Below are positions 30,536-52,244 of a stretch of DNA of 64,000 nt, piece by piece. This DNA is from Tricharina praecox (lineage: Eukaryota). The notes beneath the pieces were generated by a model, which did not search any database, was not told where the DNA came from, and was given only the letters and a program-made list of their open reading frames with translations. The stretch covers positions 992,001-1,056,000 of the forward strand of contig NW_026250403.1 in assembly GCF_024521635.1 (NCBI RefSeq), in the 5' to 3' direction. Position numbers and translations under genes: made by a program. The first letter of the stretch is position 1; each line of letters opens with the position of its first letter.

Positions 30536-31833
30536 TCACTCCTTCGCTCTCGGTATCTTGACAGCAATCCAAAATTCACACTCATAGACCCACTTCAGCA
30601 TAGCGCCCTCTCCGTTGCCAATGTACTCTCCGCAGCTCCCCTTCTCCCTCTTCTCCAGCCTGAACCCGATATTCCTGGCGACTTCCAGCACCTCCTCGAC
30701 CGTCAACTCGACACCCTGTGCATCCTCATCAGCAGCCTTCAGATCCGCCTCACGATTTTCCCAATGCCACAGCAGGGGGCCAAAATTGATCCAGACGCCC
30801 CCGTCGACCAGGACGCGGTGAATCGTCTCTAGGTACGAGAAGATGTTGACGGCAGTATCGATGAAGAAGACAGTGGCGACGACGTCGAACGCACTCTCGG
30901 AGGCGGCGTTGTTGTACGCGGACACGAAGTCGCCCGCCGTCATCGAGAAGCGGTCCTCTTCTGCGGCGCGCGCCAGCAGCGCCGGCGGGTGCACGTCCGG
31001 CACCGCTACCCCGCGCAGCTGGTTCGTCCTCGACCGGTGGTTCGAGAAGGAGTTGATGAACGGGTGCACTGTGTGTTGCCGCGCCGCGGACGTGCAGTTC
31101 AGGACGTAGTTCGACGCCATCAGCTGGTGGAACGAGTTCTCGTTGCCCTGCGCTGCGTAGCCCGCCACGACAATGTCGTATGCTAGCCGGCCCAGGCCGG
31201 CCCCGGGCACCAGCACCGAGATCCGGCCCTTTTCTGCCGGCGAGAGGTGCCCGAACCGCTGTGAGAGCGCCGCCATCACCGGTGCGTAGCAGACTTCGCG
31301 CTCGGATGCGCCCTCCGCACTCCAGTCGCGGTAAAACTGCTTCAGCGTGCTCCGCACCTTGTCGACGTCCTCGGCTGTGACGTTCATCAGCCAGTCCTTG
31401 CGACTGAGGATCTCCGGCTCGATTCCGAACGCTTCGATGGAGTGCCGGAAGATGGCTTCGGCCAGTTCCGCATTGTGTTCTATCGCTTCATCCAGACGGC
31501 CGAGCGTGGCCAGGTAATTGATTGGCTCGGCGGACAGGACCGATTGCTGGTACCGTGGCAGCGCGTGGAACTGATGTCGGCGACGGTGGGTTAGGTTGCT
31601 GTGAGCTGTTTGCCGGTAGAGGCTGCCGGAACGAGAGTTGAGTTAGCCAGGAGCAGAGGTGTAAACGCGGGGAGGGACGAAATGACGGACTGGTAGGCAC
31701 CCAGTGTGGAGAGAACCGTTTCGAGCTCGGTCGACGAGGAAACATCGCTGAGAGGCTTCTGGAGGTCGGTCGGAATGTGGAGCTTCTCCTCTGACTCAGA
31801 CTCCTCCGAGACCTCGTGTGGATGACCAGCCAT
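30536..31833 (-). CDS. N2227-like SAM-dependent methyltransferase (carnosine N-methyltransferase CARNMT1/YNL092W family); 2 exons
   Basis: 'DKVRSTLKQFYRDWSAEG..ER', 'VLVPGAGLGRL', 'QGNENSFHQLMASNYVLN', 'FSMTAGDF', 'TVFFIDTA', 'GGVWINFGPLLWH'. Intron at about 31623-31690. Confidence 0.92.
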
Positions 31834-42939: not shown

Positions 42940-45483
42940 CTATCTGAACTTTGCAACACACCGGCCCATAACCTCGCCCTGGCACACCAGCTCGGCGTTG
43001 AACTCGGAGCCATCGAGCGTGAGGTAGATATCAAAGTAAACGCGGTAGAAAGTACCCTGCGGCGTATCCATGCGTTCAAAGTCCTTCTCAAGGTTCTTAC
43101 GCGAGAGGTCACTGGTTAGAGTTACCACCTCCTTGATCCCTATAAAAATGTCCTCTGATTAATATGAGACCAACCACCATACGGGGGAATGGGTGGGACT
43201 TACTAGGATCTTTGGTGTACTCGGGGCACTGGTCGTCATCGCAAGCATACAGGATATCCTCGTACATGAGCGTGGCACCCGGCGCAACCTGTCTAAAGAA
43301 CGAGACCTTGACGGGCTCACCGATCTTGACCCTCTGGCCCTTGGTGACGAAGATCTGCCTGGTGTACTTGCATCGGTCCTTTCCGTCCAAGCTAGGGACT
43401 CGGTAGGCCTCGGGGTGGTGGCCCTCTTTGAATGGCTGCAGCGTGGCCATGAGGTAGTGGCGTCTCGCGACACGCGATGTGACGACGCGTTCCGTGATAC
43501 CGGCCGTTACCGCTCCCTTGACGATGGCAGCTACCGAGTCCATGGGGCGGACCACCTTGGACTGGAACTGGGGGGGCACGTGCAGCTTGATCTGCTGGAA
43601 GAGGTACTCGGAAGCACCGAAACCACCGACGACGAGCACGTTCTGCAACTGGCGGTTCTGCGCCTGGATGGCGATGATCTGGTTGCGGACGAGCTCCAAA
43701 ATCCGGTTCACGACGGGCTCGAAGCACTGCAGGATCTCCTCGTTGGTGAATGACATGAATCCCTCCTCGATGCCGGCTTCGGGGTATTCCTTCTCGATGC
43801 CCACATCCACGGCCCATTTCTGGCCGTTGTTTCGGAAGTCGGCCTTGATCCGATTCTCAAAGTCCATAATGCACTTGGCGTACACCTTGCCGGCCGTCTT
43901 GGAACCGTCGGGAAGCTTCATCTTGCGGATCTTGGCACGCAGGATGTTGGAGAAGTTGCGGTTGAGCGCGGTTGAACCACACGAATCTCCGGAGCCGGCG
44001 GTACACTCGGCGACGGTGAACGGGACCTCTTCCTCGACCTCGTAGGCGATCAGATCGACGGTACCACCACCGCAATCCACGATCAGCACCGCGTCGTGCA
44101 CCTTCAGGTTCAACAACCCCGTCTTGGAACAGAACATAGCGGCCGCCTCAGGCTCGGTGATCAGAGTGAGACGGTTGTCGTTCTCATCCCTTAAGAAACC
44201 GGCCTGAATGGCTGCGGCACGGGTAGCCGCCTTTCCTGCATCGTTCCAGATAGCCGGAACGGTCAGGAAATAGCGAATGTTGCGCTCCTCACGGTTGAAC
44301 ACCTCTCCCAGCGTCTTTTGCAGCTGTGCTCGCATGGCACCACGGAGCTGGAATAGGTAATCTGCCGCCACATCGATCTCGGACTTTCCCGGGGGGAGGG
44401 GAGGAAGGTTGATGGGATCGATGTAAGTGTTTCCGGAAAGCATAAGCTGAAGCTTAAACCATTCCACCTATAAATTCATCAGCAGCCGCTCATTTTTTGG
44501 CTCCGCATCTCCCTTTTCCCACCTTTTGTACACCCGGCTTGGGGTAACCTGTTGGCGCCAGAGCGTCGGCGATATCTGGACCCCATCCTACAACTTTCTG
44601 ATACTGATCGTAGTAAAGAACCGTTGGGATCTACACGAGACGAAAATTAGCCAACTGTCCACTTTTCTTCTTCTCTTTCTTTCTTTCTTTTCGAATCGCG
44701 ATCTACAAGTTGCAGCGCACTCCTTTCCACCCTTTCGATTTCTCACCTTGTTTTTTGTCTGATTACCAGCCCCAGGCCATTCCGTGATGATATCCTCCTT
44801 CGCTTCCTGGTCCGTTGCGAACGCGAAAGCAACACCACTAAAAGTAGTACCCTATGACCCGCTAATCGTCAGCAACCCACCAACTCGCAAAGCTCGAGTC
44901 CCAGGACCCCTGCTCTTTCCCATCTTCCGATGAAAATGGAGAGAAAGATAGAAAGAAAAAAACTCACAAAATCAATTCCGACAATCAACTGCGCCTTACT
45001 CCGATTATTCGTCTCCATCTCCGAAACAGGTGGTCTCATGCCTCCGCCCATGATGCCCTGTTGGCTGCCGGTACTGGCCCTGTGTTGCTGCTGTTGCTGC
45101 TGCATGGGGTATCCGGGCGGCTGGCCGTACGGTTGTGGCGGGCCCATCATCTGCTGATTCGACATCTGGGGCGGGATACCGCCAATCTGCGTGGGGCCGT
45201 AGGGAGCCCCGCCGTGCGGCGGCATCGGAGACTGCGGACGGCCCTGCTGCACTAGATGCGGGGCGCCGACGGGCGGTCCCACGTACGGAGGCGGATACGA
45301 TGGGGGTCGTTGCGGGCCCATCTGCGGATGGCCTTGCTGTACGAGGGCTTGTTGTCCTTGTTGCTGTTGTTGCTGCTGTTGCTGTTGGGGCAGTTGGTTC
45401 GGGGGCGGTGACGGCGGCGGAGGCTGATTTTTGTTACGGAAGCCCATTCGCAGTCGATTGCTGAAGCCGGGGTTTGACGACAT
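42940..45483 (-). CDS. Atypical Hsp70 (HSPA12-like, actin-like ATPase fold) with Q/P/G-rich N-terminal extension; 5 exons
   Basis: 'LIVGIDF|GTTFSGVAFA', 'ITEWPG', 'K|IPTVLYYD', 'EWFKLQL', 'LTVPAIWND', 'ITEPEAAA', 'VDCGGGTVDL', 'VVGGFGASEYL', 'VARRHY'. It lacks the canonical Hsp70 substrate-binding domain motifs and EEVD. Confidence 0.92.
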
Positions 45484-48323
45484 GGCGAGGGAGAGGAAGA
45501 AGAAAAGCGGGCGCGCGAGAGGGTGGTGAGAATAATAAACGTGGGCGTCTCTTTCTTTACGTTCCGGGATCGAAAGATGATTCTATTAAGAGGGGATACG
45601 ATCTGTGAAGCAGTGCAGTGGCTGCTGCGATCAACCAGGTGCCTTTCTCTGACCTGGGAATGTTTGTTGTATGGGTGGGGTGTGATGTGATGGGATGATT
45701 TTGGGGGGTGGGGGGAAGGTGGGTGTGTGTGTGTGGAAGGATGAATGGGCAGGCAAGACGGGCTGGCTTGCTGAGAGGAACACACAGCGAGGGACACAGA
45801 CAGAGAGAGTTTGCCGTGCTGCGTGCGAGTTCGGTGAGGCTGAAGATTGAAAGCGCGCAAGTTAGCTACTAGCAGCTTCCAGGGAATACGGAGATGGTGG
45901 TTGGTTGTTGGGTTGGGGGGAAGGGATTGGGGGGGGGGGTGGCAGTGGGCGCATGGTAGGTACGAGGTTAAGTAGAGCAGGTATTATGGGTACGGGCAAC
46001 TCACATTGTTACTTGATCTCTCCGTCTTTTCCTGTCAACCGAAGCGAGCGAGCCAGTTGGAGCAGAAGAAGAAGGAGGAAAAGCGAGCTGTTTTGCTTCT
46101 ATTGGTGCCGGTAGTTGCCACTTGTTAACACTACGGCCCTTCTATGATGAATGTGTCGATGGAGCTATTGCGGGATTCCGAGGACGACGAGCAGGAACGA
46201 GTGAGGGGGGGGTAGGCGACACAGCGAGGGAGCACACACGCACACGGGCGAGAGTGGTCTTGTGGAAAGAACGAGGTAGGGGGGAGAGTGAATGGAAGGA
46301 TAATTTGAGGGCGAGTCAGGTCGGTCAATCAGAGGGGAGAAAGAGGAGAGGGAGAAGCAAGGCAAGGTAAGCCGGTAGTGGGCTGGTGGAGGCTGGAGGG
46401 CGGCTGTGCAACAGGTGGGCGTGCTGGCGGTGATACGGGAGGGGGAACCAAGGGATATTCTATGGGCGCCGAGGATAGCGCGGCAGCAGCAGCAAGTGAA
46501 GAACGTCTGCCACTGACAAGCGTAGTGGCAACTGTGAGCGTTCCGGGAAAAGGATCTTGTATCGAGGCGGCGGGGATTGAGGCTGGGGACTGTGGTGGTG
46601 GCAATGGTGGTGGTGGTAGAATAGCAGTAGCAGTGGTGGTGGTGAGGAAGGGAGGGGCGAGAAGGTCGTCCGCAGTGAGGTGAGGGGTATTATGTGATGT
46701 GATGTGATGTAGATTGCTGGGGGTTGGGCTTCGTGATTCGACATCCAATCGAATCCACACTTTCCCCGTTGGGGTGGAGATATGACTGCCTGTTGACGGT
46801 CCCGAGTACCTAGTGTCTTCAGGAGCCGAGCACGACGGTCTGTATGTGTGAAGAGGATGGAGTATAACTATGCCATGCTGTGACGACTCCGCAATGCTGT
46901 CTGCCACCGTCTCGTCAATTCATTCGGTCCATGACGACCACCACTCCTCGCGATAGAGTGCTACCCCGTACCACGGAAGAGACCATCGCAATCGCAAGGC
47001 GGAGCTGGGGAAACCCCTTCCTTCCTGTGGACCAGGTATGGTACTCTATGGTATGGTACTCTAGATACTGCGCGTTCGCTTTCGCTGCGCCCCGACCTCC
47101 GTCTCGCTCGCTCTCAGACTAGACTCCCCCTCCCAAAGTCCGAGCAGAGGAAGGCGAGTCTCACCCGACCCGAAGATGCGATCGAAATTTACCTACCCAT
47201 TCAGCCTTACCCATCCCCGCCCAGCCGAGACGATCCCCGCCCAGCCGATCCCCATTATCCCGACTCCCCGCCGTCGCTCCATCATCATCAACCACCGTCC
47301 CTTCAGAGTGCGTCGCTACTTCTCTCAGCCTTCCCCCTTCCCCGCCTCCTCCCCTCGCTCATCAGCCAGAATCCCACCCCCTCCCCTTCCCCTTCCCATT
47401 CCCATCCCCATTCACCCTCCCTCACATGGGATGGCTGAAACCCTCCCAACACCAACCAAACCAACACTGACGACTAGGCAACCGCCCAGCTATGTATACC
47501 ATACGTACGGCTGAACTCCCACCACCCACCACAGCTTATTTTTGCCGATAAGCGTCGACAGCTACACTTCAGGCCTAGGCCGTTCTTATCCGGTGGGCTC
47601 CAACTATGCTCCAGAGTGCTAGCAACTTGCACCCAACCGAACCGACGCTGGAGGTGTTCCGCGTGCGCAGGGGAAGAGAAAGAAAGAAAGAAAAGAAAAA
47701 GAAAAAGAAGTACCAGGAGCTGCCAATAAGTGGTCCCTCACCACCATTACGAAATATAAGCACTAGTCTATATTAGGAGCGCACTAAGCCAGATACAATA
47801 AAATGAGTGAGTGGTTGTGACTAAGTTGTATGGGGAGGAAACGCTAAGCTGTATGGGGGACAAACTGGTGAGGCGGCACTTACCCTTACACCCGAGTACA
47901 TAATGCCGAGGGAAAGCGGGGACGTGAAGGAAGAACACCAAAAGAAAAGAAAAGAGAGGTGAAGGGAAGGGAAGGGCAGATCTGCGATACTTCTCGCGAT
48001 CGTAGGCATACGGTACTCCAGATACTTACCAAAGTAGAAAGTTGGTGGCGGCTGGTGGTGGCGGCTGGTGCACGTCCAATAGAGTAGTTACACCGTACAC
48101 GAACATACACGTGGTATTTTGTGGGATGGGATACGGGACTTCGGTATCGTCGGAGAGTACTTACCCACCTAACACAGACACATTGGGCCCTGAGGAATAC
48201 CTACCTTACCGAGTGCTGAGTGCTGAGTGCTGAGTGAACACTGAATGCTGAGAAATGGTATCTAGATAACATCCTCACCATCTTCCTCGAGCGCGAAGAC
48301 TTCACTCCTTATTCAGTCACATG

Positions 48324-48325
<2 letters not shown>

Positions 48326-48355
<30 letters not shown>
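48326..48355. repeat. (CA)n microsatellite
   Basis: About 15 units. Confidence 0.95.
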
Positions 48356-48358
<3 letters not shown>

Positions 48359-49499
48359 TTCCCAGGCAGACGACGGCCATTGCTGCCGCCGTTGCCGTCC
48401 AACCGTTAGATTGATTATTCGTATCTACTTTACCTACAGCATCAACGGGGAGTGGAGTGGAAGGGGGGGCGGCGATTCAGGCAGCGGGCAAGCTCTCGCC
48501 GCCCAGAGAGTTTACACCTAGGGTACTTTATGAAGGGATGCAGTCTCACCGGACATAGCATATAGGCCTACCACCATCTAGAGTACCATCTATGCAACTA
48601 CCATCTCAGCCCGGACCGTACCGTACGGTACCGGTGCTGGTGGTGCTGGTGGTGGCGGCGAGGAGTTCGCTTGCCCGCCCGCCCGCTCGCCCACCCGCTC
48701 GCCACAGATAGGTACAGATACGTCTACATCCAGATACCCACAGATAGGCAGGAGATCTCGGCGCGGCTCGCTCGTTTGCATTTACATACATTCGACCCAA
48801 CAGTTCCCAACTTCCCATATAGCCACCAGGCTGTCAATCTGTCAAGCCGGTAGACGAGATGAGATGTGTGGGGTCGGGGTCCCCCTTCACCGGCATCATG
48901 ATCAGATCAGGCAACCTGTTCACTATGTGCTGCTCCCCCCTCCCCTCCCCCTCCCCCAAACCAAACTCACGCAAACCAAATCACGGGCCTCTCCCGATAC
49001 ATCCGCCGCACCTGCCACCGCCGCAGCGCAGCTTCCAATTGTAAGCCCGAGGGACCTGCATGAAATATCTGAAAAACCAAGTGAGAACAAAAGTGTTTGC
49101 GGCATAGCATATCCAGCATAGCGAGGTAGCCCAGGGGGACCAAGACCCAAGAGTCCCATTCAATAGCACTTTGTATTTTTGTATTCACACTTCATTCCGC
49201 AATGCACACCAAATCCCCATCCCCACCTCCATCTCCATCTCCATCCCAATCTCCACCGCAATCTGTACACGAGTGCTGCAATTGGTATCACCATCATAAA
49301 TCCATAAAAAACAAGAACAACAACAAAAACATAAATTCGGGTATACCCCATCACGCACCACGCATCATAGACAGCCACACTAACGAAACCATACACCTCC
49401 ACCTCACAAACTGCCCGGAAACACACATCTCCCCAGTCCAGTCCAACAACGAAGAATTACCATACATCCATCCATCCATCACTCCCTCCCTCGCCCAAT

Positions 49500-52244
49500 T
49501 TAGATCCACACTGGCGCCTTAACCAGAATACTGCGCCCCCTGACCTCGACGGCCATGAACCCAGCCACGCGGAGCCTATCGCCATCCGACGGCTCGCCCG
49601 CCTGCTGGAGCAACGGAGACTGGGCCTGTACTGGCTGCTGCTGCTGCTGCTGTTGCTGCTGCGACTTTCCGTTGCCGGTAGGGCCCTGAGCAGCGCCACT
49701 GGGAGCCTGTGGCCCAGTAGACCTCTGGAGCCGCTTCATGACCTTTTCGCCGAAGCCCTTCTCGCCGCCTACCGCCTTGCCCTGCTGCTGCTGTTGTCCC
49801 TGCTTCTGGGCCGGCAATCCCGTGATGCCCGCGCGGGCTGCGGCGTCGTCTTTGGACGCAATGGAAGCTTGGTCGGTTGTATCATTGCTCGCATTGTCCG
49901 TCTGCATCAGGTCGCCTTCTGGCTGGGCGTTCATCGGAGTTCCAAGTGGGGGAAGGCCACCCTCGATCTTCATGAACTTGGCGTCGTAGCGATCGCCCGG
50001 AAGGGGGTACCACACTCTCACTTCTCTGGACTCGACGGGGAGGTTGGCGGCCAAGCCGATGGCGATGTCGACAACCATCTGGATGCCGCCCATGAGCCCC
50101 GGAGGTGGAGGGTCGTTGAGATGGGACTGTAGAGCGGTGAAAAGCTTGTTGACCAACAGCGCTCCAAGCTGCTGGCGAGCCTCGGTGCCGCGTTCGCTGT
50201 TGATGTGCGCATGCAGGGAATCAAGGGTTGTAAGACGCCAATTGCACACCTTGACGCTAAGTGCATCATGTTCCTCCCCGGTTTGGGGCATGGGCGATAG
50301 CAGCCGGATGTTGCGTTCGATCTCCTTGAGCTGCATCGACAGATTTGACTCCAGGGCAGGATGAAAGAATTGTTCCAGAATCTCGTCGACCACCCATCTG
50401 GAGATAGACGCCCGACCGACTACTGTCATTTCTCTGCCTCCCTTGCCAGCCGCTCCAGCATTGATGACACCATGCAGCCAAGAAGGGATCGTCTTCCACG
50501 ACTGGCGAATCTCGAAAGCGACATTCTTGATTGCACCATCAAGCCGTTCGAAGCGCGACGTGTATTCGTTGTCATCAAGTGACGTGCGGGACTGTGCTAG
50601 GCGCTGGTGGGCGAGTGTGTTCTGGAGACGCTCAATTTCGGCGCTGCGGTCAAAGTAGAGCGACTTCACTTTGCGGTATTTGGTTTCTGTAGGATAAAAG
50701 AAAAAAGGAATCAGTCATCATTTTAGATTTTCGGGGAAGGGGGGAGGGGTAGAGGGGTTCCTACGCAAAGTTTCCAGTTCCTGTCGAGTTGCCTGGAGCT
50801 CGGCATTTTGCATATCTCCAGCTCGAGATTGCGAACGTACTTCGGGAGTTGCTCGTCCCGTCTGCTCTTGGTTGTATCCCGGGGGCACTTGGATCTGCTG
50901 TCCATCACCACCAACGCCAGCTTGATTTTGACTATAACTAGGGTTGCTTTGGTGCTGTGCGTATTGCTGCTGTTGTGGCTGCGGCTGTTGTATCTGTTGG
51001 CCAAGCGACGAAGATCCGCGGACTGGAGGACCCTGCTGTACCATGGCGTCCACTGGTCTTTGTTGTTCTTTGTGCTGTGGTTGCTGTTGATAATCGAACG
51101 ACTGCTGTTGCTGCTGATGTTGATGTTGAGGGTGTGGTTGTTGTTGTTGTTGCTGCTGTTGCTTCTGCTGCTGCTGCTGGTACTCCTGACCGTGCTCGTA
51201 GTACACCGACTGGCGACCTGGCGGTGGACCAAAATTACTCTGTCGTTGCGGGTCGCTCGTGTATTCCCCGCCTCGCTGATGATTGTAGTCTACAACTTCG
51301 TTTTCCCTTGGGGTGGAAAGTATTGACTGGGGCCGTGGGGGCAGGGGTTGTTGTTGTAGATACGGGTTCGGGTGGGGTTCCTCGGTCTGAGGTTGGTGAT
51401 GGTGTTGATGGTGCTGTTGCTGCTGTTGCGGTTGATAGGGCTGAGGGTCCGGAGGTGCGGCGGACTGCTGTGGTGGTTGATGTTTATTACTATGTCTCAC
51501 CGAAATCCTGCGACCGAGACCGGCGACACCCCCTCCACCTGGTTGCGGGGAAGACGGAGTAGCAGCAGACTTATCACGCGAGGACGAAAATAGATTAAAC
51601 CCGCCTGGCTTGCGGCTCGACGTCGTGGTGGTGGTGGTGCTTTGTGTGGATTGGCGGGCGGCAGATGCGAGCGATGTGACAGAGGATGAAGCTGAGGGGT
51701 GACTGTTGTTGTTGTTGATGGTGGAGTTATCGCTCAGGTCGATAGTGCTACCCCCACCGTTGTTGTGTTGCTGTTGCGGTTGCTGCTGCTGGTGTTGGTG
51801 TTGCTGGTGTTGTTGTTGCTGTTGCGGTTGCTGCTGCTGGTGTTGTTGTTGCAGTTGCAGTTGTTGCAGCTGCTGATGCTGGTACGGCGGCGGGTGCTGC
51901 TGTTGCTGCTGTTGCGGTTGGTATTCAGCCGCAAACTCCCCCAGTCTCGCTGGCGGAGACGAATGTTGATGGAGGGACGAGGGAGACAATGCTGACTCCT
52001 GTCGTTCGGACGGGACCAGTTGAATGGATGCCCTGTTGCTGTTGCTGTTGCTCAGATTGGTCTGCGAGAGCGTGGGTATCGTAGGATGTGTGTATACAGC
52101 TGAGCCGGGGAGAGCGATCGGCGGGGAGATGCTGAGGCGGGGTGAGTCCGGGCCACCAGAGCCAGCCACGCCAGGAGCGAGGGCCGGCGCGGCTGCGCGA
52201 TTTGAGTGCTGTTTTTGGAAGAAGTTTTTTCCGATTGAAGGCAT
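49500..52244 (-). CDS. Uncharacterised protein, about 888 aa: Q-rich disordered N-half, coiled coil, helical domain and GrpE/MIEAP-like C-terminal motif; 2 exons (intron 50687-50764)
   Basis: The intron joins ORFs 50718-52289 and 49500-50669 in phase ('ELETL-Q-TKYRKVKSLYFDRSAEIERLQNTLAHQRLAQSRTSLDDNEY'). Start taken as MPSIGK at 52244. Confidence 0.85.

Follow-up and report, generated by a model that had tools for sequence, protein, structure and literature searches.

Predicted docking of a GrpE-shaped domain on a neighbouring HSPA12-type Hsp70 points to a candidate chaperone gene pair in Tricharina praecox

Two neighbouring genes of Tricharina praecox may encode an unrecognised dedicated chaperone pair. 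They lie in a stretch of 64,000 nucleotides (nt) of contig NW_026250403.1 (positions 992,001 to 1,056,000 of the forward strand), here called the window and numbered from its first letter. Gene A is predicted to encode an Hsp70-type ATPase, and gene B a protein of 888 amino acids (aa) that belongs to a small fungal family. The reading that we favour, tentatively and with a confidence just short of even, is that B uses its folded end to bind the ATPase domain of A over the nucleotide cleft and to regulate the exchange of nucleotide. The C-terminal ~400 aa of B would form a GrpE-shaped co-chaperone domain, in which a helical bundle and a small sheet follow a stalk helix, and which would bind the nucleotide-binding domain (NBD) of the neighbouring HSPA12-type ATPase. 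By bridging lobe I, through the loop aligning to DnaK 20-36, and subdomain IIB, B would open the cleft and speed the release of ADP, acting as a dedicated nucleotide-exchange or regulatory factor. Regulation or targeting would be the task of the disordered N-terminal halves of the two proteins, where B has conserved motifs of the basic-kinase and proline-directed kinds and A has a PPxY motif. All support for the pairing is computational; real binding, exchange activity, dimerisation and the roles of the disordered regions are what we infer from it.

Genes A and B are spliced and transcribed

Genes A and B are real, spliced and transcribed. An earlier note on this DNA, made from the letters alone, had described two co-oriented neighbours about 4 kilobases (kb) apart, and this description is correct: both genes are on the minus strand, and 4016 nt separate the stop codon of gene B from the ATG of gene A. 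The gene models, with their coding-sequence (CDS) exons, are as follows.

42940..45483, minus strand: gene A, HSPA12-type Hsp70-like ATPase, 730 aa, 5 CDS exons (sequence, spliced RNA contigs and Pfam HSP70)
45483-44968, 44851-44747, 44630-44523, 44467-43204 and 43139-42940, minus strand: CDS exons of gene A (stop 42942-42940)
49500..52244, minus strand: gene B, 888 aa, 2 CDS exons, small fungal family (sequence and spliced RNA contigs)
52244-50765 and 50686-49500, minus strand: CDS exons of gene B (stop 49502-49500)

In contigs from two public runs of two different studies (X1 and X2), the four CDS introns of gene A were all spliced out, with GT..AG ends on the minus strand, and the 78-nt intron of gene B (50687-50764, also GT..AG) was removed exactly. 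Since these contigs skip every CDS intron exactly, they are RNA-derived and confirm both gene models. The translation of gene B exon 2 is also 100% identical to the C-terminal 394 aa of P0001, a hypothetical protein of Tricharina praecox with 888 aa.

Chimeric joints were found in the RNA contigs as well, leading from 45103 or 45378-45390 to 50964-52033, between the CAG-repeat stretches of genes A and B. Such A/B joints, apparently produced by the CAG-type poly-Q repeats (45085-45387 and 50964-52050), occur in the contigs of all four runs. Such joints are easily mistaken for trans-splicing; we took them to be assembly chimeras.

Gene A encodes a strongly constrained Hsp70-type ATPase

The ATPase core of gene A is contained largely in one exon.

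43205..44467, minus strand: gene A exon 4, 421 aa of ATPase core, with DCGGGTVD, VGGFGAS and the IIB-like region predicted to contact B (sequence and predicted interface)

This exon scored 37.4 bits with Pfam HSP70 (PF00012), above the curated cut-off of 20.6, and aligned to positions 137-373 of the 599 in the profile; the best PDB sequence matches of gene A were the NBDs of DnaK and Hsc70, at E values of 2e-6 or weaker. Gene A has the nucleotide-binding motifs GIDFGTT, DCGGGTVD and VGGFGAS, and in an alignment with 30 DnaK NBDs its phosphate-1, phosphate-2 and adenosine motifs were invariant. Judged by its sequence, gene A is an Hsp70-type ATPase. A canonical substrate-binding domain and lid of Hsp70 were not found in A, as the Pfam match ends at position 373 of 599 and the PDB matches cover the NBD only. 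AlphaFold2 was run on a whole Hsp70 orthologue with an alignment of 22 near-identical sequences, and gave a mean per-residue confidence (pLDDT) of 36.5 and no usable fold for the C-terminal ~170 aa. Several database sources label gene A orthologues 'Heat shock 70 kDa protein 12A/12B', and the putative assignment of A to the HSPA12 type is taken from these source names.

Exon 4 showed 88-97% identity in all 240 relatives listed (two lists of 120), the named records among them coming from Orbiliomycetes, Lecanoromycetes, Eurotiomycetes, Dothideomycetes, Leotiomycetes and Sordariomycetes. When codons were compared in 13 metagenome loci, third positions had changed at 88-266 of the 421 sites and residues at only 1-30. 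Identity at this level across classes, together with heavy third-position substitution, implies a central and undescribed role, and on these comparisons the core of gene A is among the most constrained proteins to be expected in filamentous ascomycetes.

The A exon was also searched against 401 proteobacterial genomes. The matches, found in 32 genomes, all look like DnaK by their length, their N-terminal motif and their position beside grpE; the A exon is 25-28% identical to these DnaK-like proteins in 29 of 30 loci among the matches listed.

The folded end of gene B has a GrpE-like predicted architecture

A search of 1.84 billion representative proteins returned 212 matches of the gene B family at E <=0.001, 197 of them at <=1e-10, and all named members belong to the Pezizomycotina. 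Neither exon of gene B gave a Pfam match above noise, protein-cluster look-ups yielded no curated names, and the ESM Atlas returned the family's own clusters only, with no usable named match. Two names found in connection with the family were discarded: 'SAM-dependent methyltransferase-like' comes from models fused to neighbouring genes (P0118, P0020, P0110), and the label 'glutamate decarboxylase' in the B clusters goes back to models that are fused or mixed; B itself carries no such domain.

An AlphaFold2 model of the last 394 aa of B, built on an alignment of 32 sequences, reached a mean pLDDT of 75 and a predicted TM-score (pTM) of 0.65, with pLDDT >90 over most of residues 41-250 and 371-394 (exon-2 numbering, as for all residues of the model below). 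It consists of a helix at 2-58, five more long helices to 214 and five short strands, and its parts map to the DNA as follows.

50511..50813, minus strand: stalk helix of B, residues 2-58, interrupted in the DNA by the 78-nt intron (model; mean column conservation 0.78)
49965..50453, minus strand: helical bundle (helices in 78-214) and first two strands (222-240) (AlphaFold2, pLDDT mostly >90)
49590..49934, minus strand: disordered insertion rich in glutamine (Q), residues 251-365, between the two halves of the small sheet (pLDDT <50, mean conservation 0.27)
49503..49589, minus strand: conserved C-terminal tail RVRxAGFMAVEVRGRSILVKAPVW, three strands packing back on the domain (model and alignment block)

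The strands of the tail (378-381, 385-388 and 390-393) were modelled with pLDDT 86-95. A 2015 review gives GrpE a helical stalk, a bundle of four helices and 'wings' formed by the beta domain (PMC4753570), and the AlphaFold2 model of B shares the architecture of stalk helix, helical bundle and C-terminal beta domain. The model was then aligned structurally against every one of 48,161 representative PDB chains, and the first three ranks were taken by GrpE (rmsd, root-mean-square deviation).

Rank 1: 9bls_B, human GrpEL1, Z 7.8, rmsd 5.1, 141/161 aligned
Rank 2: 4ani_A, Geobacillus GrpE, Z 7.6, rmsd 5.0, 139/156 aligned
Rank 3: 1dkg_B, E. coli GrpE, Z 7.3, rmsd 4.9, 132/151 aligned

The first match after the GrpE chains is unrelated (Z 6.6), and the alignments of B with GrpE run from the first to the last residue of the model. 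We give weight to this match because the family had been proposed beforehand for the neighbour of the Hsp70 gene.

Other results weigh against GrpE likeness. Neither GrpE (PF01025) nor any other exchange-factor family of Pfam was found in B at E up to 1, and the BAG, HspBP1/Fes1 and Hsp110 families were absent at the same threshold from both exons. Searches of the PDB with B by phmmer and by profile returned no GrpE at E up to 10, and hhalign gave a probability of 0.2% for B against E. coli GrpE and of 0.3%, with 19 columns covered, against an alignment of 31 GrpE sequences. With Foldseek the B model had no PDB match at E <=0.001 (best 0.17), and the matches listed from the top 1000 chains included no GrpE, only generic helical bundles. 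According to the structural alignment tool itself, a best Z of 7-8 is typical by chance for models without a true match, with helical models reaching higher values, so that the GrpE Z values of 7.3-7.8, taken alone, are within the chance range. Moreover, the three GrpE chains share one shape and therefore count as one match, and B departs from GrpE by three extra helices and by a disordered insertion of 115 aa in the sheet. The earlier note had described B as an 888-aa protein with a poly-Q N-terminal half and a 'GrpE-like ending'. Its Q-rich half (24% Q) is confirmed and its ending is GrpE-like in predicted fold, but not in sequence; the fold likeness, in turn, is suggested by the ranking of the PDB chains and not by the Z values or by Foldseek.

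These results also bear on an alternative in which A and B have no joint function. The two genes would then be neighbours through an old, slowly rearranged block, and B would be a scaffold regulated by phosphorylation, unrelated to GrpE, whose helical domain resembles GrpE only in the common arrangement of a long helix with a small sheet; its docking on A (below) would be a false positive. The lack of GrpE sequence similarity in all searches of B, the Z values within the stated chance range and the empty Foldseek result speak for this alternative; against it stands that the top of the ranking of 48,161 chains went to the very family that had been expected in advance beside an Hsp70 gene. Taken with the docking and gene-order results given below, we regard the absence of any joint function as rather unlikely.

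The B domain is predicted to bridge lobe I and subdomain IIB of the Hsp70

Complex prediction was carried out with the pair from Drechslerella dactyloides, for which full-length sequences were at hand (P0471 residues 245-814 with P0012 residues 487-906). Two of the three runs scored 0.76 and one 0.74, against 0.08 for the highest of three controls, and the pair thus passes the tool's mark. This mark is reached by 51/78 solved complexes versus 2/108 mismatched pairs and, on eukaryotes, by 39/65 solved pairs without a like complex versus 2/126 unrelated pairs; the score of 0.76 exceeds the range of 0.34-0.59 spanned by the four mismatched pairs that passed. The three runs share at least 20% of contacts, and the partner had a pLDDT of 70.

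In the predicted complex, most contacts of B are made by the conserved stalk helix (P0012 521-563); the bundle adds some, and the tail two residues. Invariant helix residues of B in this interface include the SRTSLDD stretch and an R and an F close to residue 60 (exon-2 numbering). The contacted Hsp70 residues align to DnaK 20-36, 134-138, 264-297 (subdomain IIB) and 368-371. We take the DnaK loop 28-33 and subdomain IIB to be the classic contact sites of GrpE. Among the interface residues, 28 of 37 on the Hsp70 and 28 of 36 on B are identical in Tricharina. As known exchange factors bind Hsp70s across the same lobes, an exchange or regulatory role appears the most likely one for B. The check that the earlier note had proposed was a complex prediction of the Hsp70 NBD with a dimer of the C-terminal 390 aa of its partner; the prediction for one copy of B passed, with contacts on lobe I and IIB. 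The prediction supports, and does not show, binding of the B domain to the Hsp70 NBD.

Several points limit the weight of this result for the reading that we favour. A single copy of the B domain was used, from a species other than Tricharina. The same pass was given to 7/44 blindly chosen neighbouring gene pairs, and it may reflect likeness to solved DnaK-GrpE complexes. Positions that are conserved to at least 90% are not enriched in the B interface: they make up 13/36 of its residues and 65/240 of those elsewhere in the domain (odds ratio 1.5, p 0.32). The passing blind pairs and the unenriched interface fit neighbours without a joint function, whereas the height of the score above that of the mismatched pairs, the three controls all at <=0.08 and the placing of the contacts on the lobes used by exchange factors, I and IIB, do not.

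A further alternative accepts that B binds A, but as an adaptor, taking it to a place or a client through the disordered half, or as a lock on one nucleotide state, instead of as an exchange factor. The passed prediction for the A core and the B domain serves this alternative equally, and the predicted contacts of B are mostly on its helix and bundle and not on its small sheet, whereas in GrpE it is the beta domain that does the main work, according to the passages on GrpE in the review (PMC4753570). A disordered region of ~477 aa with conserved kinase-type motifs, as in B, is frequent in adaptors, and the extreme conservation of A makes many fixed partners plausible. On the other side, bridging of lobe I and IIB is the usual cleft-opening mode of GrpE and BAG-type factors (compare PMC4753570), and Pfam revealed no client-binding or targeting domain in B. 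We consider an adaptor or lock unlikely, and continue to prefer, tentatively, a factor that regulates nucleotide exchange.

Linkage of genes A and B is old but loose

Locus tags and contigs were matched for the 23 species present in both the A and the B protein lists; Golovinomyces (tags not visible) and Aspergillus fumigatus (lists from different strains) were left out of this count. The tags are consecutive in 1/23 species, D. dactyloides (Dda_2243 and Dda_2244). In 11 further species the two genes are on the same contig, 4-24 tags apart, which brings those within 24 tags to 12/23, from several classes.

Tags apart: Piccolia 4, Thelocarpon 4, Neophaeotheca 5, Phylliscum 7, Polycauliona 7, Sarea 9
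Tags apart: Gyalolechia ehrenbergii 9, Pyrenodesmia 10, Blastenia 10, Xanthomendoza 12, cf. Caloplaca sp. 1 24

The remaining evidence on gene order runs counter to a maintained pair. In the other 11 species, A and B are on separate contigs or distant from each other; six of these have fragmented assemblies with contigs <150 kb (Candelina, Pycnora, Sticta, Loekoesia, Wetmoreana and Teloschistes), and in Trichophyton, Oculimacula, Phlyctema, Monilinia and Thyridium the two genes are clearly separated, either by a long distance or by lying on different large scaffolds. We also collected 80 metagenome loci around the Hsp70 gene (L001-L080), 29 of which had an upstream flank of at least 7 kb. B was found <=10 kb upstream of the Hsp70 gene in 2/29 loci and downstream in 0/28, corresponding, after clustering at 95% DNA identity, to 1/19 lineages upstream and 0/18 downstream. 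The two positive loci, L002 and L003, represent one close relative with the same gene order and strand, a gap of ~1.8 kb, and collinearity with the window beyond both genes. There was no neighbour common to all long metagenome loci.

Other genes of the block are linked to the Hsp70 gene too, foremost a methyltransferase gene of the window.

30539..31642, minus strand: carnosine N-methyltransferase gene (Pfam CARME, E 2e-91), 12 kb from gene A

In 10 metagenome loci CARME is located <=10 kb from the Hsp70 gene, and the matches listed include seven lichen-fungus gene models that fuse the two. Since other block genes (CARME, ATG27-like) are linked in this way, inherited synteny could explain the proximity of A and B. 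This general block synteny, and adjacency in a single tag-matched species and a single metagenome lineage, are further points for neighbours without a joint function, to be set against a linkage kept in about half of the tag-matched species and in several classes. We conclude that the A-B linkage is old but loose and is part of an old linked block. Adjacency of A and B presumably dates from early filamentous ascomycetes and was eroded afterwards, and such a drifted linkage is weaker than a maintained operon-like pair. The conserved linkage that the earlier note had put up for checking thus exists within 24 tags in 12/23 species, but seldom as direct adjacency, and its proposal of an Hsp70 with an exchange-factor-like module is partly supported in silico, by the predicted fold, the docking score and the IIB contacts, but not by GrpE sequence similarity or by general adjacency.

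The N-terminal regions are disordered, and their glutamine richness is largely confined to Tricharina

Both proteins begin with a long low-complexity region.

44968..45483, minus strand: gene A exon 1, low-complexity N-extension of ~160 aa rich in Q, proline (P) and glycine (G), with two poly-Q runs and a PPSY/PPPY motif, followed by the ATPase start LIVGIDF (translation)
50814..52244, minus strand: disordered N-terminal half of gene B, ~477 aa, rich in Q, serine and P (composition, alignment blocks)

The N-extension of ~160 aa on an atypical Hsp70, with its Q/P/G-rich composition, had been noticed before and is plain in the translation, poly-Q runs included. Orthologues P0121, P0123, P0155, P0211 and P0471 retain in this extension the PPxY-type 'GRPPSY' and a basic N-terminal motif (SRFKxLGF..RK). 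A PPxY-type motif is a possible site for WW-domain proteins such as Rsp5-type ligases. The N-termini of A and B are both basic, with no acidic residue in at least the first 30 positions. The 32-sequence alignment of B revealed conserved short motifs in its disordered half, namely an N-terminal MP..F..NRS, LGRRxSxR and GRxTPP. Within otherwise fast-evolving disorder, LGRRxSxR and GRxTPP resemble basophilic-kinase and proline-directed phosphorylation sites.

Poly-Q-coding runs of at least 5 codons number 14 in the 64-kb window, 12 of which fall inside genes A and B. Outside Tricharina this richness is not kept: the A extension is P/G-rich with Q <=13% in six orthologues, and the N-terminal half of B, with 24% Q in Tricharina, has 12-16% in five other members. 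From these sequence comparisons, Q-richness appears to be largely a Tricharina-specific trait, so that the Q-rich N-termini earlier ascribed to both proteins are mainly a feature of this species.

A last alternative, which takes up the co-condensation idea of the earlier note, is that A and B are linked mainly by their low-complexity N-termini. Without any part played by the folded domains, these would bring both proteins into shared condensates, at septal pores for instance. The long disordered N-terminal regions of both proteins and the concentration of poly-Q-coding runs in the two genes agree with this idea. The poor conservation of Q-richness argues against it, no localisation data were found for either protein, and in a paper on a septal-pore screen (PMC10023807) Hsp70 occurs only in the reference list, with 'actin-like', 'methyltransferase', 'coiled-coil' and 'chaperone' absent. 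We hold this link to be highly improbable.

The gap between the genes is partly transcribed

Two transcribed features lie between the coding sequences of A and B.

45484..46591, minus strand: 5' untranslated region (UTR) of gene A, with a 165-nt intron at 45840-46004 (spliced RNA contigs)
47006..47830, no strand assigned: low-depth transcribed stretch in the gap (separate 825-nt contig)

The 5' UTR extends, by a transcript contig, to at least 46591 and is thus ~1 kb long; its intron is seen as a joint of 45839 to 46005, with CT..AC ends, in contigs of X1, X2 and one of X3. The second stretch contains a plus-strand GT..AG joint (47307-47490) in one run. It had no coding signal, was not conserved in the relative L002, and may be a non-coding transcript. 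Parts of the gap without contig cover were not taken as silent. No Pfam match was found in the two open reading frames of the gap that were tested (including 46935-47435), and no Rfam family or tRNA in the gap. The absence of a clear gene between A and B, as read earlier from the letters, therefore agrees with these searches, but the interval is not free of transcription. Around the pair, the window holds housekeeping genes, encoding aminopeptidase P, Pan3, APC4, importin beta, a GAT-domain protein, a Sac1-like phosphatase, CARME and a sulfate permease, and no J-domain gene is among them.

Comparison with known Hsp70 systems

The literature searches made here returned no paper on this fungal Hsp70-like protein, on the B family or on a co-chaperone of an HSPA12-type protein. 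The function of HspA12 is called unknown, and its mechanism untested, in passages of a 2026 review (PMC13580251). A specific and testable partner with an exchange-factor-like shape and docking would offer a direct way into HSPA12-type proteins. If the proposed mechanism is true, B would represent a new exchange-factor class with GrpE-like architecture, a variant on the theme of Hsp70 plus exchange factor, and gene order combined with a predicted fold would be able to reveal such a pair without sequence similarity. A bolder version, which we consider possible but doubtful, is that B founds this new class of Hsp70 exchange factors, GrpE-shaped by extreme divergence or by convergence, spread, by its named records, across the Pezizomycotina and serving a single ultra-conserved Hsp70 of HSPA12 type. 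Their genes would have been neighbours in the filamentous ascomycete ancestor, B would be the first co-chaperone of an HSPA12-type protein, and its disordered half with kinase motifs would tie the cycle of the ATPase to signalling or to a specific cellular site.

Gene A resembles animal HSPA12A and HSPA12B as an atypical Hsp70 with a recognisable ATPase domain and no canonical lid, a likeness that depends on the names of its orthologues, and differs from them in its P/G/Q-rich N-extension, its PPxY motif and its extreme constraint. As to exchange factors, the 2015 review, in the passages concerned, places eukaryotic GrpE homologues in mitochondria and chloroplasts and names Hsp110, HspBP1 and BAG proteins as the cytosolic and endoplasmic reticulum (ER) factors; the BAG factors are helical bundles that target IIB of the Hsp70 NBD and form part of multi-domain proteins, by which Hsp70 is recruited to special tasks (PMC4753570). 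B is like the BAG factors in that its predicted interface is mostly helical and includes IIB. It is unlike them in its added sheet and long stalk and in the absence of a BAG family match in Pfam at E up to 1, and no BAG structures were among the best 50 rows of the PDB-wide structural comparison of B.

Unlike GrpE, B has no detectable sequence homology to that family; it adds three helices, a sheet insertion of 115 disordered aa and, N-terminally, a further ~477 aa of disorder, and its predicted contacts are mainly helical and not from the beta domain. Unlike DnaK, its partner A is of HSPA12 type and ~25-27% identical to DnaK NBDs. The closest counterparts are nevertheless DnaK-GrpE (1DKG, 4ANI) and mortalin-GrpEL1 (9BLS), in which an Hsp70-type ATPase is likewise combined with a partner made of a stalk helix, a bundle and a small beta domain. 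As in DnaK-GrpE, the predicted contacts on A align to DnaK 20-36 and subdomain IIB, and, like dnaK and grpE in several sampled proteobacterial genomes (e.g. G008 and G002), the genes for A and B are neighbours.

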